A stretch of 64,000 bases of DNA from Candidatus Woesebacteria bacterium (GCA_963716475.1 OY970314.1:354981-418980); one strand, 5' to 3'; numbered from the stretch's first letter, positions 8,866 to 58,268 are shown. Translations and numbers: made by a program. The notes: generated by a model not told the origin, from the letters alone.

Positions 8866-8873
8866 GGGACCTG

Positions 8874-8957
8874 TGCCGGGGACAGGAATCGAACCTGCAC
8901 GCCTTTAAGGGGCACTAGGTCCTAAACCTAGCGTGTATACCGTTTCACCACCCCGGC
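8874..8957 (-). tRNA. tRNA-Leu(TAG)
   Basis: Reverse complement GCCGGGGTGGTGAAACGG...CTAGGTTTAGGACCTAG... with a long variable arm. Anticodon loop TTTAGGA. Confidence 0.8.
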
Positions 8958-8962
8958 CTAGG

Positions 8963-9487
8963 TTAGATTATATCAAAGTTTAGAGGTAGTGAATCGATTT
9001 TTCTGACAAAAAATTTAACCCCGCTTCCCCAGGTAGTAGAGGGCGGAGCATACCTTTTAGCAATTTTTGCAATCGTGGGTGCACCTTTATCGATATAAGA
9101 ATATTTTATCGTTTTAGAAACATGAGAAATTGAATCCTCCCAGGAGGTAAAACTGTAATTTCCGTTAGCCCAACCATATGCGTTGTAGGAATTAGCGGGA
9201 ATATTCTTGCCGAAAGTTGATTCCACGCCGGAAATTGATGGTACTAGTCTGTAATCAAGACCGTTTTCATCTGCATAGACTACAAAATCTTCCGCATATT
9301 CGGAAAGGGGGGAGTTGTATTTTTCCAGGAAAATCCTGAGATTTTCCACACGGTAATCAAATCCGAAATCTTCTCCCTCGCTCTTTAAAGAGGCAGAATG
9401 ATCGGATAAGGTTTGAGCATTAACTCTAACTGTGCCTGTAAAGACTAAGATGGCTGTTATTAAGATATAAAGTATTAGTTTATTCAT
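8963..9487 (-). CDS. secreted GH73-like glucosaminidase (peptidoglycan hydrolase), paralog 1
   Basis: Start taken at MNKLILYI (signal peptide). ISGVESTFGK...NAYGW...SWEDSISHVSKTIK...KRYAP resembles the mannosyl-glycoprotein endo-beta-N-acetylglucosaminidase domain. Confidence 0.5.
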   Translation of the reverse strand: MNKLILYILITAILVFTGTVRVNAQTLSDHSASLKSEGEDFGFDYRVENLRIFLEKYNSPLSEYAEDFVVYADENGLDYRLVPSISGVESTFGKNIPANSYNAYGWANGNYSFTSWEDSISHVSKTIKYSYIDKGAPTIAKIAKRYAPPSTTWGSGVKFFVRKIDSLPLNFDII

Positions 9488-9693
9488 AACCGTTTGTAAA
9501 AAGAAGGCCCGTCTATAAATAGACGGGCCAAATATGTATTCCAACGCCGAAGTCATGTTTCCATGCTTAAGCCTCAGAATGTGCGCGTACTATAGCATAG
9601 AATTATAAGATAGTCAAGTATTATGGGCTTGAAAGTTGACTACTTTAGTAGTTCTGGCTTTAGGATATAAAACAATGAAGGATAAAAGAGGTA

Positions 9694-10329
9694 CTACTCC
9701 ATTTCGGACATGAATTCATTAACACCCTGTGCCCATGAGCCATTACTTAAAGGCGTATATTTGTTCATTATGTCATCAATGGTTGCGTAACCTTTATTGA
9801 GATAATTTTCTCTAAGTCCTTTAGAAACCTTCTCAATCCCCTCCTGAAATGAAGAAAATCCTACGGATCCCTGACCCGTAATTCCCCAGCCCCAACAGTT
9901 ATAAGACTCGGGGGGGATGATCTTACATACATTTGATTCCTGCCTGGCAATGGCGGTAATCAAACGAAAATCCAGAGAATACTTATCCGCGGTTTGGACA
10001 ATTAATCCTGAATATGGTGCAAGGGGTGAACCAAGACTTTCCATATATTGCCGAAGTATTTCAGGCCTGGCATCACCTGATGTTATTTCCTCCGAAACCG
10101 ACGGGGATTTCATGGGCAAAGATGCATAGACCTTTACACCCGACTGTGGAGAGGAGATTAGATTGGATAAAGATAAGTCTTGCTTGGCGGAAACACTGGA
10201 TTTAAGTGAGAATAGAGAAAAAAGACTAATACCAAGGGTTAATGGAGTTATCACAAAAAAAGAAATAACCAAAATCAGATTTTTCCAAAAACCGATATTC
10301 TCTTCCCTACTAAACTGGACACTTTCCAT
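9694..10329 (-). CDS. secreted GH73-like glucosaminidase (peptidoglycan hydrolase), paralog 2
   Basis: TM/signal N-terminus. ITAIARQESN...YNCWGWG...FQEGIEKVSKGL...GYATIDDIMNKY is paralogous to 8963..9487. Confidence 0.5.
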   Translation of the reverse strand: MESVQFSREENIGFWKNLILVISFFVITPLTLGISLFSLFSLKSSVSAKQDLSLSNLISSPQSGVKVYASLPMKSPSVSEEITSGDARPEILRQYMESLGSPLAPYSGLIVQTADKYSLDFRLITAIARQESNVCKIIPPESYNCWGWGITGQGSVGFSSFQEGIEKVSKGLRENYLNKGYATIDDIMNKYTPLSNGSWAQGVNEFMSEME

Positions 10330-10386
10330 TATTTGTCAGGATGCCACAAATGAGTGTTGTGTGTCAAGCATTTAAAGCTAAATATG

Positions 10387-10458
10387 AGCGGCGGACGGGA
10401 ATTGAACCCGCTACATTCTCCTTGGCAAGGAGACATTCTACCGATGAATTACCGCCGC
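10387..10458 (-). tRNA. tRNA-Gly(GCC)
   Basis: Reverse complement GCGGCGGTAATTCATCGGTAGAATGTCTCCTTGCCAAGGAGA...TTCAATTCCCGTCCGCCGCT. Anticodon loop TTGCCAA. Confidence 0.8.
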
Positions 10459-10515
10459 AAATCGAATTAATCTCACCGAAACAGGCCTAATGATACAACA
10501 AGTGAGGGTAAAACT

Positions 10516-11790
10516 CTAGGTTTTTATAAATATTTTCTTTGCAAATTGGTAGAACTTCACAATTTTTGACGGGTAAAAAATGGCAAAAGCAACCGGAATT
10601 AAAGCCATGAGAATTTTGGGATGATAACTTAGTTCAGGCATAATTAACATGTTTGTAACGGCAATTATTCCCAGTACTTCCTCCTTAGCAAACCTTTTTG
10701 CAAAAATAAATATTACAATTATTAAAAGAATCATGGGTGAATATGTATAGCGGAAACCGGAGGTTACTAAATTGGGATAAAAACCTGAAGGGAAAAAAAG
10801 ATATGCAAAAAAGCAAGGGTAAGCAATAAGCAGAAGCTTGGTAATATCATTACGAAGGTTTTTATTTAAACGTTTAAGTGTTAGGGAAAAAATAATAGGT
10901 ACAGCTAAAAATGCCAAGCACCAAACGGTATATTCAGATACAAACGCGTTTATCCAAACTTTATAACCTCCTGACCAAACAATTATCGAACGCCAGACAG
11001 GAAAAATTGTCCAGTCATTTTGATAACCTTTTAAGTGAAGAAATAATGAATTGGTTGGGTAATATGGATTTCCCGTTAATATGTAATTTCTGACATACCA
11101 GGAAAGTCCGAGAATTGAAAACGGAATTAAGAAAACGATTAGCCTTCGTAAATTTAGACTTTTTAAAACAGGCTTTCCTAAAACAACCAGAAGAAATACT
11201 GAAAAAATCGGGGCAGAGTATTTACTACCGAAAAACATGCCCATTGCCACGCCCAGAGATAAAAAGTATCGCCAGGTTTTTTTAGGATTTCGTAAAAGAA
11301 TTAGAGTTATTACGAAAAAACAGGCAAGCCAAACATCAATTGTCTGTGAAAGAAGCCAGCGTATTATGACGTGTAAAGAGGCGATCGTGGATGAAAAGAT
11401 AGTCGAATAATCGTTAGAAAAACCGTAAGTTTTAGCAAGATGTCTGACTACAAAGAACAAAAGGATTATTCCTACCCAGTCAAAGAGATTTATTGGGATA
11501 TGCAGCATAGTAAAGATAGCCAGAATCATTTCGGACGTGCCAGGACTGTATATAGTTCCCCTATCGATCAGTGGTGAGAAAGGAGCAAGTGCCGGATTAT
11601 AGATTTTCCCAGCTAGTATTAATTGTGAAATTGGAATATGGTATGCGACGCTGTCACCTTCCAAAACTTTACTAGTGGCTCCTTGTACAAAGTAATATAA
11701 AAGAAGAAAAGCAAATATCACAAGGGATATTTTGGAAAGATAAGAGAGAAGATCATTTTTCATATACTTGTGCCGAGAACAGTGCTCCAC
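10516..11790 (-). CDS. polytopic membrane protein, possibly GT-C-type glycosyltransferase (ArnT/PMT-like)
   Basis: More than 10 predicted TM helices with loop-rich architecture. No catalytic motif verified. Confidence 0.4.
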   Translation of the reverse strand: MEHCSRHKYMKNDLLSYLSKISLVIFAFLLLYYFVQGATSKVLEGDSVAYHIPISQLILAGKIYNPALAPFSPLIDRGTIYSPGTSEMILAIFTMLHIPINLFDWVGIILLFFVVRHLAKTYGFSNDYSTIFSSTIASLHVIIRWLLSQTIDVWLACFFVITLILLRNPKKTWRYFLSLGVAMGMFFGSKYSAPIFSVFLLVVLGKPVLKSLNLRRLIVFLIPFSILGLSWYVRNYILTGNPYYPTNSLFLHLKGYQNDWTIFPVWRSIIVWSGGYKVWINAFVSEYTVWCLAFLAVPIIFSLTLKRLNKNLRNDITKLLLIAYPCFFAYLFFPSGFYPNLVTSGFRYTYSPMILLIIVIFIFAKRFAKEEVLGIIAVTNMLIMPELSYHPKILMALIPVAFAIFYPSKIVKFYQFAKKIFIKT

Positions 11791-11897
11791 TTGAACATCC
11801 TAGACAGTTTCAAGGATACAGCAAACGAAATTGAAACTCTATATTCATAATTTGATGGCTAAATAGACATTTCAGCCCGAAAAATATATATTAAGTT

Positions 11898-12335
11898 ATG
11901 AGGGGTAACACCAAGGGTTTTACTCAAATTATTCTTATCATTGTTCTATTGATTATGGTTGGAGGAGCCGCCTATTATTACGGCTCTCAATCTTTAAGGA
12001 TTCCTTCACAGGCAACTTCTACTCTAACAGCAATACCTAATAATATTAATTGCAATACTGACGAAGAATATTTTGTAGACCATCGAAATGGACAGGGTGG
12101 TTGTGTTAAAAAGCCAAGCGATGCTGGCAAGTCTTGTACGAAAAGTTCTGCATGTCAATCGGGATATTGTGTAACAAAGGAGATTAAGGCAACGAAAGGT
12201 ATATGTTACGATTCTTACTATAACATTCCATGCTCTGACTGTTATTGGACAATAGAAAGTTCACAAAAAGCGGAGGTCCGAAAACAAATATCTGGTGGCG
12301 GAGAATCTACTTTTTCCCCTTGTTGTACCTACTAA
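11898..12335 (+). CDS. small secreted Cys-rich protein
   Basis: N-terminal TM/signal segment and 12 or more Cys in the C-terminal 100 aa. Confidence 0.45.
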   Translation: MRGNTKGFTQIILIIVLLIMVGGAAYYYGSQSLRIPSQATSTLTAIPNNINCNTDEEYFVDHRNGQGGCVKKPSDAGKSCTKSSACQSGYCVTKEIKATKGICYDSYYNIPCSDCYWTIESSQKAEVRKQISGGGESTFSPCCTY

Positions 12336-12367
12336 AAGTTAAAAGCAGACTAGAATAACCATAAATG

Positions 12368-12440
12368 TGCCGAGAGGCTGAGTCGAACAGCCATTTGACG
12401 CTCTTCAGGCGCCCGCCTTGACCACCTTGGCTATCTCGGC
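12368..12440 (-). tRNA. tRNA-Phe(GAA)
   Basis: Reverse complement GCCGAGATAGCCAAGGTGGTCAAGGCGGGCGCCTGAAGAGCGTCAAATGGCTGTTCGACTCAGCCTCTCGGCA. Anticodon loop CTGAAGA. TTCGA T-loop. Confidence 0.7.
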
Positions 12441-12460
12441 ATAAACTAAGCGATTGCTAA

Positions 12461-12514
12461 GACAAGATACACTTACCAGGGCTCTGGCTGGCCAAGCTTC
12501 GCTTATCTCGGCCA
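12461..12514 (-). repeat. composite intergenic repeat (copy A) carrying two GTAAGCGAAGC(T/A)TGGCC cores, upstream of tRNA-Phe
   Basis: About 85% identical to 55941..55993. Core also shared with 13074..13097 and 37446..37469. Confidence 0.6.
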
Positions 12515-12665
12515 AAAACCTTTTAATAATAAATATGCAATTCCAAGTAATAATAAACCGCCAAAAATCTTTAAAAGAAAGATAAATTCAGGAAAATCCA
12601 AAAAGAAACCGATTATTTTCCTCCAAATTATAGCTACCCAATAGTCATCTTTTCCCATATTCCGG

Positions 12666-12739
12666 TGGACACTGAGGGGCTCGAACCCCCGACCTCATCG
12701 ATGTAAACGATGCGCTCTAGCCAGCTGAGCTAAGTGTCC
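12666..12739 (-). tRNA. tRNA-Val(TAC)
   Basis: Reverse complement GGACACTTAGCTCAGCTGGCTAGAGCGCATCGTTTACATCGATGAGGTCGGGGGTTCGAGCCCCTCAGTGTCCA. Anticodon loop TTTACAT. Confidence 0.8.
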
Positions 12740-12744
12740 CTAAG

Positions 12745-12825
12745 TGCACCCGGAGAGACTCGAACTCTCACGCCTTTCGGCGTAGCTCCTCAAGCTACCG
12801 CGTATGCCAGTTCCGCCACGGGTGC
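12745..12825 (-). tRNA. tRNA-Leu(GAG)
   Basis: Reverse complement GCACCCGTGGCGGAACTGG...GTAGCTTGAGGAGCTAC... with a long variable arm. Anticodon loop TTGAGGA. Confidence 0.75.
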
Positions 12826-12871
12826 GTATCATAACAAACTGCACTAACCGCAAAAGTTTAGCTTCGACGAG

Positions 12872-12953
12872 TGCAGGTGGGAGGATTTGAACCTCCACGG
12901 GTTGCCCCACACGGCCCTGAACCGTGCGCGTCTGCCAATTCCGCCACATCTGC
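12872..12953 (-). tRNA. tRNA-Leu(CAG)
   Basis: Reverse complement GCAGATGTGGCGGAATTGG...CACGGTTCAGGGCCGTG... with a long variable arm. Anticodon loop TTCAGGG. Confidence 0.75.
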
Positions 12954-12969
12954 AATTATATCGTATTTG

Positions 12970-13041
12970 TGACCCTGGGAAGAATCGAACTTCCATCTCG
13001 TTCTTAGAAGGAACTTGCTCTATCCGTTGAGCTACAGGGCC
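12970..13041 (-). tRNA. tRNA-Arg(TCT)
   Basis: Reverse complement GGCCCTGTAGCTCAACGGATAGAGCAAGTTCCTTCTAAGAACGAGATGGAAGTTCGATTCTTCCCAGGGTCA. Anticodon loop CTTCTAA. Confidence 0.75.
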
Positions 13042-13046
13042 AAATA

Positions 13047-13097
13047 CATACGTATTTTACCATTCATTGGATGAATGGCCAAGCTTCGCTTACTATT
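13047..13097 (-). promoter_or_regulatory. sigma70-type promoter for the five-tRNA array (upstream box GTAAGCGAAGC, -35 TTGGCC, 17 nt spacer, extended -10 TGGTAAAAT)
   Basis: Minus-strand reading ATAGTAAGCGAAGCTTGGCCATTCATCCAATGAATGGTAAAATACGTATGTATTT then the tRNA 5' G. Nearly identical module at 37446..37491. Confidence 0.55.
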
Positions 13098-37445: not shown

Positions 37446-37491
37446 ATGGTAAGCGAAGCTTGGCCATTTCCAAACCGAAATGGTAAAATAC
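37446..37491 (+). promoter_or_regulatory. sigma70-type promoter for tRNA-Pro (upstream box GTAAGCGAAGC, -35 TTGGCC, 18 nt spacer, extended -10 TGGTAAAAT)
   Basis: ATGGTAAGCGAAGCTTGGCCATTTCCAAACCGAAATGGTAAAATACATATAT then the tRNA. Matches the module at 13047..13097 at 32 of 33 anchored positions. Confidence 0.55.
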
Positions 37492-38276: not shown

Positions 38277-38347
38277 GCGGGATTAGTTAATCGGCTTAAC
38301 AACAGCTTTCCAAGCTGTGAAGAGGGGTTCGACTCCCCTATCCCGCT
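38277..38347 (+). tRNA. tRNA-Gly(TCC)
   Basis: GCGGGATTAGTTAATCGGCTTAACAACAGCTTTCCAAGCTGTGAAGAGGGGTTCGACTCCCCTATCCCGCT. Anticodon loop TTTCCAA. Confidence 0.8.
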
Positions 38348-38379
38348 CAAAAATCAGATTTTGAGGGGTCAAGCTTTGC

Positions 38380-38442
38380 TTATCCCGCTCTGAGTTTGAC
38401 GAAGAGGGGATATGAGCCTAGCGATTATTCCGCTCAAAATTT
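38380..38442 (+). repeat. two degenerate copies of the tRNA-Gly(TCC) 3' end (TTATCCCGCTC and TTATTCCGCTCAAAAT)
   Basis: Compare the tRNA end CTATCCCGCTCAAAAA at 38337..38352. Confidence 0.45.
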
Positions 38443-52987: not shown

Positions 52988-54648
52988 TCGAACTTAGAAT
53001 CAAGCAAATTATGGCCTGTCATGCTTGATGGAATTTCAATATTCAGCAACTTCAGGATTGTGGGTGCGACATCAGCTAAAATACCGGCAGTTAGAATGAT
53101 AGGCTTACCTACTAATTTCTGTGAAATTACAATAAAGGGAACAGGGTTCCTACTATGCTCGGTGTCAATCGCACCGGTTTCATTATTAATCATCTCTTCA
53201 CAATTGCCATGATCGGCAGTAATAATCATATTGCCGCCGTATGCCAAAATCCAATCACTGAGCTTTCCTAAACATTCATCTACCACCTCACAGGCTTTTA
53301 CGGCAGCGCCTATATTCCCCGTATGCCCGACCATGTCTGGGTTGGCAAAATTTACAAGAACAAATTTATAACCGGGAGTTTCTTTCAATTTCGTTAAAAC
53401 CCCTTCAGTTACTTCCTGAGCACTCATTTCGGGTTTAAGATCGTATGTTGCAACTTTAGGGGATGGAATTATTAAGCGTTCTTCACCATCAAACGCCACC
53501 TCCTGCTGACCGTTAAAATAAAAAGTTACAAATCTTTCCTTCTCACTTTCGGAAACTCTTAATTGTTTATATCCGGCTTCAGAAACAACCCTGCCTAAAG
53601 GTAATTTCACTACCTCAGGGGGAAAGGCAACTTTAGCCTCCGCTTCGACAATCGCTTTTTCATATTCAGTCATGGTCGCAAAATAAAGGTTATTAAGTCT
53701 TGGACCACGAATAAAAGGTTCCTTGATGTCTACAACGGGTTGTGCCAGGTGAGTTCTTTGATATTTAATTAGATATGGATCAAATCCGACAGGAAGATTT
53801 GCTTTTGAGAAGTCCTCAAAACAAAAGGCCCGAGAAAGTTGTCTGGGTCTATCGATCCTGAAATTAAAAAAGATAACGGAATCGTTGTCCTTTATTGTAA
53901 TTAACGGCTTCCCGTCTACCCCTGTGATTACGCAGGGCTCGATAAATTCGTCAGTTTTACCCTCGGCATACGAGGTATCAATTCCTTCCTCAACTGTTTT
54001 AACCAACTGTCCTTCTCCTTTGGTTAATGCAAAATATGCTTTGGCAGTCCGTTCCCATCTCATATCTCTATCCATGGCCCAATACCTGCCCATTATGGTT
54101 GCGATTTTACCGATATTCTGTCTTGTCAAAACCACACGAAGCTGATTAATGTAACCTTTGGCGGCAGTGGGCGGGGAATCCCTTCCATCCGTAAAAAGAT
54201 GCAGGAAAACCCTGTCGAAATTGTTGCGTTTGCAAAGGTCTATCAAAGCAAAAAGATGTTCTATATTACTGTGAACCCCGCCGGCGCCAATCAATCCCAT
54301 TAAATGAAGATTGCTGTTATTCGTTTTTGCATGTGCAATGGCTCCTATTAAAACCTGGTTTTGATAAAAACTTCCGTCGGCTATACTCATGTTTATTCTT
54401 TGTAAATCCTGATAAACAATTCTGCCTGCGCCAAGATTGAGATGTCCAGTTTCGGTGTTACCGACTTCACCTCTGGGAAGACCCACCGATTCACCTGACG
54501 CCTGTAATTGAGTATGCGGATACGAAGCGGTGAATTTATTCATGTTGGGCGTTTCGGAGCGGGAAATTGCATTTCCCGGACCCGGGGCCGCAATTCCCCA
54601 TCCGTCCAAGACTACAAGAATAACAAAATTTGAAGAATTCTCATCCAT
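52984..54648 (-). CDS. gpmI: 2,3-bisphosphoglycerate-independent phosphoglycerate mutase
   Basis: VLDGWG and TDGRDSPP motifs with a C-terminal phosphatase domain. 554 aa. Confidence 0.85.
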   Translation of the reverse strand: MDENSSNFVILVVLDGWGIAAPGPGNAISRSETPNMNKFTASYPHTQLQASGESVGLPRGEVGNTETGHLNLGAGRIVYQDLQRINMSIADGSFYQNQVLIGAIAHAKTNNSNLHLMGLIGAGGVHSNIEHLFALIDLCKRNNFDRVFLHLFTDGRDSPPTAAKGYINQLRVVLTRQNIGKIATIMGRYWAMDRDMRWERTAKAYFALTKGEGQLVKTVEEGIDTSYAEGKTDEFIEPCVITGVDGKPLITIKDNDSVIFFNFRIDRPRQLSRAFCFEDFSKANLPVGFDPYLIKYQRTHLAQPVVDIKEPFIRGPRLNNLYFATMTEYEKAIVEAEAKVAFPPEVVKLPLGRVVSEAGYKQLRVSESEKERFVTFYFNGQQEVAFDGEERLIIPSPKVATYDLKPEMSAQEVTEGVLTKLKETPGYKFVLVNFANPDMVGHTGNIGAAVKACEVVDECLGKLSDWILAYGGNMIITADHGNCEEMINNETGAIDTEHSRNPVPFIVISQKLVGKPIILTAGILADVAPTILKLLNIEIPSSMTGHNLLDSKFD

Positions 54649-55918
54649 TTTGTTTCATTTGGACAAGCTCTATTTCAATTGCAGAAAGGCGGTTGTATTT
54701 GGCTACGCGCTCTCCTCTTGCAGGCGCCCCTGATTTTATATAATCAGCCGCAACCCCCACTGCAAAATCGGCAATAAAGCTATCATTTGTTTCTCCGGAT
54801 CTATGAGAAACTACAACTTTCCAGCCAGCATCTTTTGTAGCTTTAACAACACTTAACGTTTCCGATACCGTACCGATTTGGTTGGGTTTTATTATTGCGG
54901 CGTTACAGGCTTTCTCCTGAATTGCTTTTTGTACACGCTTAAGATTGGTTGCAAGTAAATCATCGCCTACAATTATCAATTCACTGGAAAGTTCCGAGGT
55001 AAGTTTCTTCCAGCTGTCCCATCCGTCTTCGTAAAAAGCATCCTCGATAATTGCCAACTTATACTGATCAAACAACGATTTGTAATACTCAAGAAATTGG
55101 GTATCATCCATCCCGCTGGTTTTATCTTTAATTGTATATTCACCGTCTTTATAAAAAGAATTTGAGGCGACATCAAGCCCGAGAAAAACGTCTCTCCCAA
55201 GCGAGTAGCGTGTTTCCTTAATTGATTCAATAAAAACCTCAAATGCGTCGGTATTTGTAAAAAGGTTGGGCGCATATCCACCTTCCTGTCCGACGGAATG
55301 GATCGCTCCTCTATGGGACAGGTTGTTACCGATTGTTTGGTAAATCTCCACACCCATTTGAAGACCGTCAATAAAACTCTTATTGCTTGCCGGCACAACC
55401 CAAAATTCCTGAAAGTCAAGATTGCCGGCACCGTGTTTGCCTCCGTTTATCATATTGAACAAAGGGGTGGGCATTTTCACTTTTTGAGTAACACCCGCTT
55501 TAGAAGCCAAACCGTAAATCCAGGCATAAAGCGGCTGACCGGAAGCGGCTGCACCGCATTTTGTAACAACCTCCGAGACAGAAAGAATAGCATTAGCACC
55601 ATATTTCGATTTATTTTCAGTACCGTCCAAATCGATAAGTTTTTTGTCAATTCCAAACTGATCAATCGGATCCATATCAACTATTGCCGGTCCTAAAACC
55701 GAATTGACATTATCAACCGCCTGCAAAACACCAAGGCCTAAATATCGGGGGTTATTTGCATCTCTAAGTTCCAATGCTTCATGTGTACCGGTTGAAGTTC
55801 CGGCAGGAACCGATGACACACCAACTTGTCCATTGTCCAACATGCAAGCCGTTTCCACGGTTGGAATACCCCGCGAATCCAAAATTTCTCTCGCCCAAAC
55901 ATGTTTTATCTTGCTCAT
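54641..55918 (-). CDS. eno: enolase
   Basis: MSKIKHVWAREILDSRG N-terminus and SHRSGETEDSFIADFAV-like block. 425 aa. Confidence 0.9.
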   Translation of the reverse strand: MSKIKHVWAREILDSRGIPTVETACMLDNGQVGVSSVPAGTSTGTHEALELRDANNPRYLGLGVLQAVDNVNSVLGPAIVDMDPIDQFGIDKKLIDLDGTENKSKYGANAILSVSEVVTKCGAAASGQPLYAWIYGLASKAGVTQKVKMPTPLFNMINGGKHGAGNLDFQEFWVVPASNKSFIDGLQMGVEIYQTIGNNLSHRGAIHSVGQEGGYAPNLFTNTDAFEVFIESIKETRYSLGRDVFLGLDVASNSFYKDGEYTIKDKTSGMDDTQFLEYYKSLFDQYKLAIIEDAFYEDGWDSWKKLTSELSSELIIVGDDLLATNLKRVQKAIQEKACNAAIIKPNQIGTVSETLSVVKATKDAGWKVVVSHRSGETNDSFIADFAVGVAADYIKSGAPARGERVAKYNRLSAIEIELVQMKQNG

Positions 55919-55921
55919 ATT

Positions 55922-55997
55922 TAAATTCTACAATAACTCACGACAAGCTTCGCTTACCAGGGCCCTAACTGGCCATGCTTCGCTTATCTTGCTCATA
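55922..55997 (-). repeat. composite intergenic repeat (copy D), inserted between ppsA stop and eno start
   Basis: 55941..55993 is about 85% identical to 12461..12514. Flanked by a 16-nt direct repeat TTATCTTGCTCATATT (55906..55921 and 55985..56000). Confidence 0.6.
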
Positions 55998-58268
55998 TTA
56001 AATGTCCTTCTCCGCCTCTGCGATAACTCCACGGACTCTGTCTATAGAATCAGGGTTAATCGAAACACTGGTTATTCCCCATCTTACGAGCTTTTTGACC
56101 AGGTCTTCATACTCACTGGGTGCCTGGCCGCAGATTGAACTGGTTATTCCCGCCTCCGAACACTTTCTTATCACACGTCTTAGTGCCCATAAAACTGCAG
56201 GCGTGCGTTCACTAAACTCGCGTGCAACTTCCGAATTGTCTCTGTCGGTTCCCTCTATGAGCATTGTCAAATCATTACTTCCGATAGAAACTCCGTCAAT
56301 CCCAACTTTAATGAAATCTTCTATTTGAATAACATTAACAGGAATTTCTACCATCATCAAAAATTTAAATGATGCTTTCTCAAATAATCCTTCGCTGGCA
56401 ACCAACCTCCTGACCTTGGCCAGTTCTTCAGGTGACCTTACGAAAGGAATCATCAAATATAAATTATCAAATTTTTCGCGGACAGCTTTAATAGCCTGAA
56501 GTTCCAAGTTGAAGACTTCAGGATTAGACACATACCGATAGGCTCCCCTAAAACCGAGCATCGGGTTGGGCTCTACCGGTTCCCAATTTTTACCACCGAT
56601 AAGAGACCTGTATTCGTTTGTTTTAAAATCGGTTGCCCGGTATACTACCGGCCTGGGATAAAAGGCTTTGCAGAACGTCTCCAGATCACGCGCGAGTTTA
56701 CCAACAAACTTACCCTGCACCTTTCTTTTAATTGCCTCTTTAGGATGAATTCCTATATTTGCCATCATGAATTCCGCGCGGAGAAGTCCGACACCGTCGA
56801 CATTTCTTTTGGCAATTTCTTTTGCCCTCTCAGGCTCCGCCAGATTTACATACACTTTCGTGGCAGTTTTTGTATTTTTATATTTAGGTTTCTCAACCAA
56901 TTTGCTATTTGACAATTGAGTTTTGACATTTGCCCCCATATATATTTCTCCGGCTTCGCCGTTAACCGTAACTATTTCCCCGTCTTTCAATTTCTTAGTT
57001 GCATCATTAGTCCCAACCACACAAGGAATTCCAAGCTCTCTCGAGACTATTGCGGCATGGCTGGTCTGGCCGCCTTCGTCGGTGATGATAGCCGCCGATT
57101 TTTTCATCGCCGGCACATAATCCGGTGATGTCATCGGGGCCACCAACACATCACCTTTTGCAACTTTACCTATCTCTTTAGGGCTTTTGAGTATTTTAAC
57201 GGGACCTGTACCAATTCCCGGAGATGCGGGGCTTCCTGTCAATATCGGAGCTTCAGCGATTTTAAATCCGTTTTTATCTTCTTTCGTGATTCTTGTCGTT
57301 TTAGCAATCGCAGTAACCGGGCGGGTCTGAACTATGAAGAGTTTCCCTTTTTCCTTAGCCCATTCCGTATCCTGAGGGAAATAATAGTGGGTGTGTAACC
57401 TGAATGAAAGTTTGGCCAATTCAACAATTTCCTTATCAGAAATCTTCTGTATGTTCCGTATCTTGCCCGGTACTGCAACTTCCTTGTTTTCACCGCTTTT
57501 AGTCCGGACAAGTTGAGTACCCTGATCCGAAATTTCTTTCGAAAGAATCGCGAAAGTATCTTTTTGCACAACATAAGTGTCGGGAACCACCGATCCCTGG
57601 ACTATCATTTCGCCTAAACCCCAAACAGACTCTATAACAATTCTGTCTTTATCGTCGTTTACAGGATCAATGGAAAACATGACACCGGAAACTTCCGATT
57701 CCACCATTTTTTGCACCGCCACGGATATTTTCACCTTTTCGTGAGGAATCTTATTTTCAACCCGGTAATAAATGGAGCGGCCGGTGAAAAGCGATGCCCA
57801 ACACTCACGCACCGCCGTAAGAACATTTGCTTCACCTTTAACGTTTAAAACCGTGATTCCCATTCCCGCAAAAGAGCTTTGCGGCATATCCTCAGCTGTA
57901 GCCGAAGTGCGGACTGCCACCAGAGCTTTTTTGAAAGCACCTGAAAGTCGTTTATAAGAAGTAATTACCTCACTGATAACCTCGTCAGGAAGTTTGCCAT
58001 TCACAATCATTTTCTGAATCCTACCCGAAGCGCTATCAAGTTGTGCAGGATCGTTTACATCAACGACAGCTAAGATATCGTAAATTTTTTTAACGATATC
58101 GTTCTCTTTTAAAAAGAGGTCGTATGCATTAATTGTAATTGCAAAACCATTCGGAACCGGAAAACCTGCCTGGGTCATTTCACCTAAATTTGCACACTTT
58201 CCGCCAACCAAAGGGGTATCATTTTTATCAATATCTTTAAAGAAGGCTATTATCGGGTGGGCAGACAT
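55998..58268 (-). CDS. ppsA: phosphoenolpyruvate synthase (pyruvate, water dikinase)
   Basis: VGGKCANLGEM ATP-grasp N-terminus, phospho-His GGQTSHAAIVSRELGIPCVVG and the PEP-utilising SIGSNDLT. 756 aa. Confidence 0.75.
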   Translation of the reverse strand: MSAHPIIAFFKDIDKNDTPLVGGKCANLGEMTQAGFPVPNGFAITINAYDLFLKENDIVKKIYDILAVVDVNDPAQLDSASGRIQKMIVNGKLPDEVISEVITSYKRLSGAFKKALVAVRTSATAEDMPQSSFAGMGITVLNVKGEANVLTAVRECWASLFTGRSIYYRVENKIPHEKVKISVAVQKMVESEVSGVMFSIDPVNDDKDRIVIESVWGLGEMIVQGSVVPDTYVVQKDTFAILSKEISDQGTQLVRTKSGENKEVAVPGKIRNIQKISDKEIVELAKLSFRLHTHYYFPQDTEWAKEKGKLFIVQTRPVTAIAKTTRITKEDKNGFKIAEAPILTGSPASPGIGTGPVKILKSPKEIGKVAKGDVLVAPMTSPDYVPAMKKSAAIITDEGGQTSHAAIVSRELGIPCVVGTNDATKKLKDGEIVTVNGEAGEIYMGANVKTQLSNSKLVEKPKYKNTKTATKVYVNLAEPERAKEIAKRNVDGVGLLRAEFMMANIGIHPKEAIKRKVQGKFVGKLARDLETFCKAFYPRPVVYRATDFKTNEYRSLIGGKNWEPVEPNPMLGFRGAYRYVSNPEVFNLELQAIKAVREKFDNLYLMIPFVRSPEELAKVRRLVASEGLFEKASFKFLMMVEIPVNVIQIEDFIKVGIDGVSIGSNDLTMLIEGTDRDNSEVAREFSERTPAVLWALRRVIRKCSEAGITSSICGQAPSEYEDLVKKLVRWGITSVSINPDSIDRVRGVIAEAEKDI

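Follow-up and report, generated by a model that had tools for sequence, protein, structure and literature searches.

A lineage-specific insertion of a short palindromic repeat, with duplication of its target, between ppsA and eno in a Woesebacteria genome

What has come between ppsA and eno? The question is raised by a locus of a Candidatus Woesebacteria bacterium (GCA_963716475.1 OY970314.1:354981-418980), in which the gene of a ppsA-like phosphoenolpyruvate (PEP)-utilising enzyme and the enolase gene eno are parted by a spacer of 79 nt, 55919-55997, running from the ppsA stop to the eno ATG. By "the window" we mean the whole stretch of 64,000 nt which was analysed, and the figures given for the window refer to these 64 kb of the genome; its Eno homologues place it in Candidatus Woesebacteria / Microgenomates. 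We report that a short DNA repeat was inserted here and duplicated its target. The relevant genes all lie on the minus strand, ppsA first and then eno, and the parts of the locus are as follows.

55998-58268, minus strand: ppsA-like PEP-utilising enzyme, 756 aa, an open reading frame (ORF) with its stop TAA at 55998-56000.
55984-55999, minus strand: distal copy of the duplicated target AATATGAGCAAGATAA, an eno pseudo-start 1 nt past the ppsA stop, found by repeat search and missing in relatives.
55928-55996, minus strand: upstream ORF of 22 codons, MSKISEAWPVRALVSEACRELL and a stop, obtained by translation and putatively expressed; 9 nt separate its stop TAG from the eno ATG.
55971-55987, minus strand: box 1 ATAAGCGAAGCATGGCC, which includes the GCGAAGC mini-hairpin motif.
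55957-55972, minus strand: class-B hairpin CCAG-TTAGGGCC-CTGG; a near-identical hairpin, CCAGTTAAGGCCCTGG, occurs in L022.
55941-55957, minus strand: box 2 GTAAGCGAAGCTTGTCG, whose CTTGTCGTG is able to pair with CAAGATAAG of the distal duplicate.
55927-55943, minus strand: 3' "filler" TCGTGAGTTATTGTAGA, non-conserved, perhaps derived by decay from a duplicate of the ppsA tail CGTGGAGTTATCGCAGA (56016-56032).
55925-55930, minus strand: -10-like hexamer TAGAAT, 6 nt 5' of the eno ATG, in leaderless geometry.
55906-55921, minus strand: second, proximal occurrence of AATATGAGCAAGATAA, which contains the real start of eno, with its ATG at 55916-55918.
54641-55918, minus strand: enolase, an ORF of 425 aa (Enolase_N and Enolase_C in homologues).

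Read along the minus strand, the junction begins with ...GAC ATT TAA T and ATGAGCAAGATA, which is the duplicated eno start, and continues with AGCGAAGCATGG, the hairpin CCAGTTAGGGCCCTGG, TA AGCGAAGCTTG and the 3' filler, after which ATTTAAAT leads into ATGAGCAAGATAAAACATG..., the real eno start. The spacer holds two GTAAGCGAAGC boxes, with a spacing of 30 nt, and a CCAG..CTGG hairpin between them. An earlier note on this DNA had described a composite repeat with a 16-nt flanking duplication, and the sequence is as described: the duplication is exactly 16 nt long (a repeat search extends the flanking repeat to 19 nt at 95%, with 78-nt spacing), one copy lies at 55906-55921 and the other, which had been placed one base off at 55985-56000, really lies at 55984-55999, where it does overlap the ppsA stop by 2 nt. 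The proximal copy had been taken for the real start of eno, rightly so, because MSKIKH/MAKIKH is the conserved N-terminus in the 60 Eno homologues which we inspected.

The gene order common to the closest relatives (Eno 94%, 90% and 91% identical) is PMM, PGI, ppsA, eno, iPGM, and the domains PPDK_N, PEP-utilizers and PEP-utilizers_C are found in the homologous neighbour gene of these relatives. Comparing the ppsA-eno junction in related genomes, as the earlier note had proposed, we found it uninterrupted in L057 and, at 90-94% identity of Eno, in L001-L005: only 0-2 nt separate the eno ATG from the stop of ppsA, or the two overlap (as ATGA), and the box was not found in the relatives' orthologous loci. 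When the window was aligned by BLAST with the relatives' loci and with L057, the alignments broke at 55921 and 55984, and 6-15 nt of each relative were used by both of the flanking alignments. Such a break, with bases which are used twice, is what an insertion leaves behind when it duplicates its target. Hence, we concluded that the spacer arose in this lineage, by the duplicative insertion of a short DNA repeat.

The duplication may once have been longer. The 3' 20 nt of the eno insert have no match among the other copies of the family described below, and the 17-nt filler resembles the tail of ppsA: a local alignment of CGT-GAGTTATTGTAGA against CGTGGAGTTATCGCAGA has 14 matches in 17 columns, one of them a gap, a score which is reached by 18 of 5000 shuffles (p ~0.004) and by 0.5% of genomic windows. 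It is possible, although not established, that an original duplication of about 50 nt was later cut by a 13-nt deletion.

The inserted sequence belongs to a family of repeats. The unit consists of (G/A)TA|AGCGAAGCTTGG, followed by a perfect hairpin CCA..TGG of variable sequence and by TAA, and can also be written GCGAAGCTTGG + hairpin + TAA; its head is (T)AAGCGAAGC or (G/A)TAAGCGAAGCTTGG. Across the family the unit is 27-45 nt long, with a conserved head of 15 nt, and in the eno copy the conserved part amounts to about 41-43 nt, made of a box, the CCAG..CTGG hairpin and a second box. Only the 5' end of the insert is precise; the 3' end varies between copies. The oligonucleotide d(GCGAAGC) is an extraordinarily stable DNA mini-hairpin (PMC13037366). 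The hairpins of the family comprise 51 distinct sequences, almost all of which have perfect stems of 4-8 bp, and their mean uninterrupted stem is 5.45 bp long, versus 3.73 bp when the 5' and 3' halves are mixed between copies (at most 4.28 bp in 1000 trials). It is this comparison within the family, and not the folding energy, which provides the evidence for the hairpin: the centroid fold of the eno insert contains an AGAUAAG/CUUGUCG stem with a z-score of only -1.0, and neither the eno copy nor the tRNA-Phe copy has an exceptional stability as RNA or DNA (z-scores from -0.9 to -1.25). The repeat search found no inverted repeat bounding the eno insert, whose sole internal pairing is the weak CAAGATAAG/CTTGTCGTG stem. 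Restriction-type palindromes (AAGCTT, TGGCCA/GGCC, GGGCCC) are crowded into about 30 nt of the unit, at 55941-55987 and family-wide.

Class A of the family has a 19-20-nt hairpin CCATTT..AAATGG followed by TAAAAT, which gives TTGGCC-17/18-TAAAAT with a TG extension. Its units stand 8-20 nt before tRNAs (tRNA-Arg and tRNA-Pro of the window, L012, L020, L027, L061) or 6-9 nt before an ATG (at 6-7 nt in L006, L009, L016, L030 and L031, and also in L039 and L060). Class B, with a hairpin CCAG-N8-CTGG and a 14-nt spacing, comprises the copies at eno and tRNA-Phe and those of L007, L022, L026, L028, L032, L042, L046 and L057; the 43-nt core of the eno copy is 95% identical to L022, 91% to L028 and 89% to the tRNA-Phe copy of the window. 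Units are also found in head-to-tail arrays (L014/L056, L035/L054, L020, L022, L059). The arrays of L035/L054 and L014/L056 hold at least three near-identical units of 32 nt or 57 nt, in the manner of a minisatellite; they are devoid of spacers and therefore are not CRISPR arrays.

Searching for the strict pattern AAGCGAAGCNTGGCCA-N6-20-TGGTAA, we found it in 5 Patescibacteria/Woesebacteria genomes among 185,579 species representatives and in 50 metagenome contigs; a sixth matching genome, from Opitutales, is probably a chance match. None of 2.9 million viral contigs has the pattern, and we rejected a phage origin on account of this absence. A known RNA family was rejected as well, since only tRNAs reach the Rfam gathering score in the window and 55850-56050 gave no meaningful match even when E values up to 10 were allowed; so was an intrinsic terminator of ppsA, as the search for terminator-like sites was negative and the stem is not followed by a U-tract. 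Full-text searches of the literature on the candidate phyla radiation (CPR), on Woesebacteria/Microgenomates and on the GCGAAGC motif turned up no description of such repeats. We regard the unit as a small non-autonomous palindromic repeat, of a kind which is known and of a family which we did not find described.

Within the window, the 17-mer GTAAGCGAAGCTTGGCC with at most 3 mismatches has 6 matches where 0.07 are expected, and none of 100 shuffles reaches 6; the strict pattern matches 4 times in these 64 kb, versus 1 matching stretch per matching genome elsewhere. The copies other than that of eno are given here.

12441-12512, minus strand: composite 5' of tRNA-Phe, paralogous to the eno insert; from 5' to 3', GCCGAGATA (12504-12512), box (12490-12506), hairpin CCAGCCAGAGCCCTGG (12476-12491) and degenerate box 2 (12460-12476).
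13054-13093, minus strand: class-A unit in the promoter of the tRNA-Arg cluster, made of the box, the hairpin CCATTCAT-CCA-ATGAATGG and TAAAAT (TTGGCC-17-TAAAAT with TG).
37449-37489, plus strand: class-A unit in the promoter of tRNA-Pro, made of the box, the hairpin CCATTTC-CAAACC-GAAATGG and TAAAAT.
38339-38390, minus strand: degenerate unit ATAAGCAAAGCTTGACC... just past the 3' end of tRNA-Gly(tcc), with a 10-nt flanking duplication GAGCGGGATA (38381-38390 and 38339-38348).

The identity of about 85% which had been noted between the eno and tRNA-Phe copies holds across the core AGATAAGCG...CTTGTC (41/48, counted by eye on the alignment) and falls to 78% across the whole range first compared. 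Each copy had also been credited with two units; this is so at eno (55941-55957 and 55971-55987) and not at tRNA-Phe, where the second unit is degenerate, GTAAGTGTATCTTGTCT. The mimicry of the 5' end of tRNA-Phe is genuine, for the gene itself starts with GCCGAGATA at 12432-12440, as does the composite.

Where does the unit insert? Pairs of filled and empty sites were found at eno, at tRNA-Lys (L065 versus L062/L064) and at tRNA-Arg (the window versus L065). At tRNA-Lys, the empty site of L062 reads AATAATGGTA|AAATGG and the filled site of L065 reads AATAATGATA|AGCTGAGCTTGGCCATTTTCATTTAAAAATGATA|AAATAG; at tRNA-Arg, the site which carries a unit in the window is a bare TGTTAAAAT in L065. The two tRNA pairs mean that the units enter extended -10 promoters which exist already; they do not bring the -10 hexamer and they add a -35-like TTGGCC. 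The earlier note had called the box shared with tRNA leaders a tRNA promoter box, a reading which these pairs do not support. Over 55 distinct copies, the left flank preceding AAGCG has the consensus a-T-G-(A/G)-T: position -1 is T in 51 of them, -2 is A or G in 53, -3 is G in 26 and -4 is T in 29. This flank, TG(A/G)TA-A, resembles both the extended -10 motif and the unit's own TGGTAA 3' end, and the eno target AAGATA|AAAC resembles the left flank and the extended -10 motif in turn. We count the insertion, the duplication, the family, the covariation of its hairpins and the bias of its target as observed facts.

Flank duplications of at least 8 nt anchored at the 5' junction occur at 10 of the 50 loci (~20%), versus 5 of 500 controls. 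The lengths in this count were 8-15 and 27 nt, and a separate comparison gave 30 nt at L046. The length is not fixed, since in all we saw 8, 8, 9, 9, 10, 15-20, 27 and 30 nt: those of 8-10 nt belong to L011, L013, L051 and the tRNA-Gly and tRNA-Phe copies of the window, and the longer ones to eno (15-20 nt), to L034 (27 nt, the 5' half of a tRNA-Cys) and to L046 (30 nt, the 5' half of a tRNA-Gly). Every long duplication regenerates the 5' part of the gene which was hit. The idea that the 3' arm of the hairpin is copied from the target, which came from L034, L030, L039 and the tRNA-Pro copy, fits 3-5 of 50 loci and was given up as a general rule.

The explanation which we favour as a whole, and which we hold to be rather probable, is a duplicative insertion of a unit of the family, copied by template switching, with consequences for the promoter of eno and in the form of an upstream ORF. 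Most likely, the copying would be a template switch (copy-choice) between short TGRTAA repeats, to which the GCGAAGC and CCA..TGG hairpins, being very stable, would contribute: the growing strand, its end being TG(A/G)TAA, would jump to a donor unit lying after TGGTAA, the donor unit would be copied through its TGGTAA end, and the strand would then switch back. A return to the point of departure would produce a clean insertion of one unit, while a return farther upstream, via microhomology, would duplicate the target. At eno, the unit would have entered after codon 4 (AAG ATA|AAA) and the return would have taken place upstream, so that the end of ppsA and the start of eno would have been duplicated over 16 nt or more, perhaps over about 50 nt, with an intact eno left downstream; the eno junction has GTC in common with the ppsA tail. 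We favour copy-choice because the 5' end is precise, the 3' end is variable, the length of the duplication is variable and TGRTAA stands at both borders of the unit, four features which are hard to reconcile with a classical transposon. Selection may maintain the perfect stems, or else template switching which corrects palindromes may do so, two possibilities which the data do not separate.

These features nevertheless have to be weighed against an enzyme, and a hairpin-recognising single-strand transposase, IS200/IS605-like or similar to the tyrosine transposases associated with repetitive extragenic palindromic sequences (REPs; the transposases are called RAYTs), is a serious rival. The units would then be classical non-autonomous transposons (miniature inverted-repeat transposable elements, or MITEs, IS200/IS605-type palindrome-associated elements or REP-like elements) moved by a transposase encoded elsewhere, which would recognise the GCGAAGC and CCA..TGG hairpins and insert 3' of TG(A/G)TAA, the longer duplications being secondary. 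A precise 5' junction with a conserved left-flank motif, hairpins whose feet are conserved and whose stems vary, head-to-tail arrays, presence or absence differing among close relatives and what looks like a burst in the lineage of the window (4 strict copies in 64 kb versus the single stretch elsewhere) are all expected of such an element. On the other hand, terminal inverted repeats are missing, the 3' terminus is not conserved, nor is the length of the duplications fixed (8 to 30 nt or more), the strict pattern has only one stretch in each carrying genome, and no transposase turned up in the work on the window, though none was searched for; all in all we judge this transposon unlikely. A reverse-transcriptase or target-primed insertion, in the manner of a short interspersed nuclear element (SINE), would also account for one precise and one variable end with duplications of 8 to 30 nt or more, and for the fact that transcribed genes have their 5' parts duplicated beside the units (tRNA halves, the eno start). 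It seems to us very improbable, given that there is no A-rich or other priming tail, that class-A units lie 5' of the -10 hexamer and hence outside the transcript which they drive, and that we know of no bacterial precedent for this route.

Two further explanations do without mobility. The box and hairpin could be a regulatory site (an operator or an UP/-35 module serving a transcription factor or sigma factor, or a structured RNA leader) which evolved locally at eno, and the exact TTGGCC-17/18-TAAAAT geometry of class A before tRNAs and leaderless genes in several organisms speaks in its favour, as does the strong conservation of the box despite diverged flanks, for instance at the PolX site of L033/L053. 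Units lying in frame in L17, L19, PolX, ppsA and AbiEii, or in tandem arrays, make regulation implausible there, however; the empty sites already have complete -10 promoters, the spacing at eno is 14 nt and not 17, there is no Rfam match and the fold z-scores are unremarkable, so that we give little credit to a purely regulatory origin. That the spacer is an artefact of assembly or consensus at a short repeat is hardly conceivable: the assembly is probably metagenomic and exactly this Eno protein is on record nowhere else, but the same composite architecture is found in the independent contigs L022 and L028, the ORFs on both flanks are intact, the internal structure is coherent, and assemblers do not invent 63 nt of novel sequence between 16-nt repeats.

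Several observations weigh against duplicative insertion by template switching as we have described it. An enzyme-free mechanism is unprovable from sequence, and the precise 5' junction of nearly all copies could equally reflect an enzyme. No near-identical donor copy of the eno unit was seen within the 64-kb window. The fold energy of the eno insert is ordinary (RNA z = -1.0, DNA z = -1.25), and TAGAAT has neither a TG extension in register nor a -35 element at 16-18 nt. The taxonomy of the 50 metagenome contigs which match the strict pattern is, besides, unverified. Finally, a duplication of about 50 nt would require the part taken from the ppsA tail to have changed a good deal (1 indel, 3 substitutions and the 13-nt deletion), which is in tension with the fact that 14 nt of the unconstrained pseudo-start are identical. 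The extension to about 50 nt may therefore be a chance resemblance.

Taking the family as a whole, we can only suggest tentatively that the units are an undescribed class of mobile DNA in CPR bacteria. They might home to TG(A/G)TA|A (promoters and look-alikes in genes and tRNAs) and spread without a classical transposase, by hairpin-promoted copy-choice or by a single-strand or target-primed route; the long duplications would regenerate the essential gene which was hit, and the units would be portable upgrades for promoters and would supply short peptide insertions (L17, L19, PolX).

What did the insertion change for eno? In the relatives, eno lies directly against the ppsA stop or overlaps it, and lacks a promoter element of its own. 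Of 58 long ORFs, about 24 have a -10 hexamer (TAnnnT) 4-9 nt, mostly 5-9 nt, 5' of the ATG, and only 6 have a Shine-Dalgarno-like sequence; to judge from these motifs, most genes of the window look leaderless and the extended -10 (TGnTAnAAT) looks like the dominant form of promoter. Examples of leaderless genes are those at 58268, 60652, 52260, 39197, 35726 and 2328; the same geometry is seen at ppsA (TATAAT-6-ATG) and PMM (TAGAAT-5-ATG). The sigma-70 extended -10 geometry was found, as a consensus match only, in the class-A copies alone, at tRNA-Arg with 17 nt and at tRNA-Pro with 18 nt between TTGGCC and TAAAAT, both with TG. The eno copy does not have it: it reads ATGGCC-14-TAAGCG, and a promoter scan of the spacer finds nothing, so that there is only the bare TAGAAT. 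The suggestion that the element had brought a promoter-like box in front of eno is thus not supported for the box, the 14 nt from box to TAA not being a promoter geometry. A plausible promoter element of eno is by contrast the TAGAAT at 55925-55930, which falls within that 3' part of the insert which is not conserved, and the insertion probably gave eno a leaderless promoter of its own. The duplicated ATG, 1 nt past the ppsA stop, opens the 22-codon ORF, which could preserve translational coupling to eno.

How do these units compare with known systems? The earlier note had seen at eno a MITE-like insertion with a target-site duplication. A lineage-specific insertion of a repeated element with target duplication is indeed what we found, and there are multiple dispersed copies (six in the window) and polymorphism (filled and empty sites at eno, tRNA-Lys and tRNA-Arg); it is not a MITE in the strict sense, as it has no terminal inverted repeats, a variable 3' end, and duplications which are not of fixed length (8-30 nt) and which occur at ~20% of loci. 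With the palindrome-associated elements derived from IS200/IS605, the units share end hairpins, insertion directly 3' of a short conserved target (here TG(A/G)TAA) and a single orientation. Those elements are, however, larger (above about 100 nt), have a left end which differs from the right one, and make no target duplication, whereas the unit goes down to 27 nt and ~20% of the loci have 8-30 nt duplicated: the left flank is biased, aTG(A/G)T-A, and many single units have no duplication, while eno, tRNA-Phe, tRNA-Gly, L011, L034 and L046 have one. BOX elements of Streptococcus pneumoniae are modular, with a module which is tandemly reiterated a variable number of times, and have the potential for stable secondary structure and for effects on neighbouring expression. 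Our units resemble them in modular tandem reiteration, in structure potential and in a possible effect on nearby genes, and differ in that there is no homology of sequence or architecture and that BOX modules are 45-59 nt long and intergenic.

Correia elements duplicate a TA target and are bounded by terminal inverted repeats of 26 nt. Neither feature is seen in our units, and the -10 hexamer was there beforehand in two of the filled/empty pairs. The likeness is that Correia elements and "putative mobile promoters" are small repeats which create or carry promoters and rewire the downstream gene (PMC3488235, PMC2229807); here class A adds TTGGCC at -35 to an extended -10, and the eno insert puts TAGAAT before the ATG. 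REPs and REPINs, mobilised by RAYTs, are 20-40-nt palindromes with a conserved head by the stem, sometimes clustered, for which movement as a single-stranded hairpin has been proposed (PMC3733652, PMC8049555), and in all this they are like our units. They differ by their GTAG/CGTC head (PMC3733652), their extragenic location, their tens to hundreds of near-identical copies and their RAYT gene, whereas our units have the head (T)AAGCGAAGC, are in many cases intragenic, have 51 different stems and match the strict pattern once per matching genome; neither the GTAG/CGTC head nor extragenic, near-identical copies in high number were found. As for Rickettsia palindromic elements (RPEs), whose properties we take in part from a review of MITEs (PMC10969869), they too are short palindromic repeats of a reduced genome, intergenic as well as in frame in genes, where they add a short peptide (here KRSLA..GK). 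RPEs are however about 100-150 bp long with a conserved, family-specific sequence, while the units here have 27-45 nt, a 15-nt head and a hairpin which varies from copy to copy; the two do not resemble each other in sequence and come from different phyla.

An in-frame insertion into functional genes, as known for RPEs, is found in our family, the eno copy itself being intergenic. The in-frame units within protein-coding genes encode KRSLA..GK and were found in L17 (L015, L032), in L19 (L057), in PolX HHH_8 (L033, L053), in the interdomain linker of ppsA (L011/L037), in an AbiEii toxin (L026) and in a PMT-like glycosyltransferase (L055). For the copies in L17, L19, PolX, ppsA and AbiEii, Pfam domains are found on both sides or upstream. 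The unit of PolX occupies the same site in the two organisms (L033, L053) with different hairpins.

Patescibacteria have genomes of about 1 Mb which are generally held to be poor in mobile DNA. Hairpin repeats of 30-45 nt which are gained or lost between close relatives mean that insertional remodelling persists on a small scale in such reduced genomes, the landing sites being promoters and, in frame, genes of ribosomal proteins, polymerase and glycolysis. The eno locus offers a concrete case of rewiring, with eno parted from ppsA by 79 nt and probably provided with a leaderless promoter and an upstream ORF. A hairpin which is variable and yet always paired is also a test case for separating selection from replication errors which correct palindromes. 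For annotation the units are a hazard, since they create pseudo gene starts and pseudo 5' halves of tRNAs.

Some minor observations concern the tRNA loci. The degenerate unit past tRNA-Gly(tcc) lies on the opposite strand, and its 10-nt duplication is the 3' end of the tRNA; farther downstream (to ~38450) there is a decayed pseudo 3' half of tRNA-Gly, GAAGAGGGG...TATTCCGCTCA. In L043 (5290-5393, minus strand), 5' of an intact tRNA-Ile and tRNA-Ala, a pseudo 5' half of tRNA-Ile has a 28-nt unit in its D-loop. An intron-like role for this unit was rejected, because deleting the 28 nt restores no detectable tRNA.

The leader of tRNA-Phe is a more complicated case. In L062, GCCGAGATA occurs 4 times in succession 5' of tRNA-Phe, each time forming a hairpin with CTTGTCTCGGC, from which we concluded that this leader was targeted repeatedly; in the tRNA-Val/tRNA-Phe gap of L062/L063 (5655-5804), three of the four GCCGAGATA are pseudo-starts paired with the inverted CTTGTCTCGGC arm. 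A simple empty site at tRNA-Phe was looked for and had to be rejected, the relatives having older and rearranged versions there (four GCCGAGATA in L062, a box in L064, an HNH-like ORF in L065), so that this copy is undatable. In L065/L066 (3761-4239), the Val-Phe gap contains a small Cys-rich HNH-like ORF (CxxC...CxxC...H) in place of box units, and in the window (12503-12658, minus strand) the gap is filled by a hydrophobic ORF of 51 codons, a putative gene whose stop is the TAA of the GCCGAGATAA|GCG junction. The cluster Arg-Leu-Leu-Val-Phe-(Gly) next to an ArsR-family gene (window 8873-13093) is rearranged with respect to L062-L064 and to L065/L066; in L062-L064, Arg and Gly are inverted and adjacent, and Phe-Val-Leu-Leu lies on the far side of two genes. 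The breakpoints of the tRNA cluster coincide with box units or with pseudo-tRNA starts.

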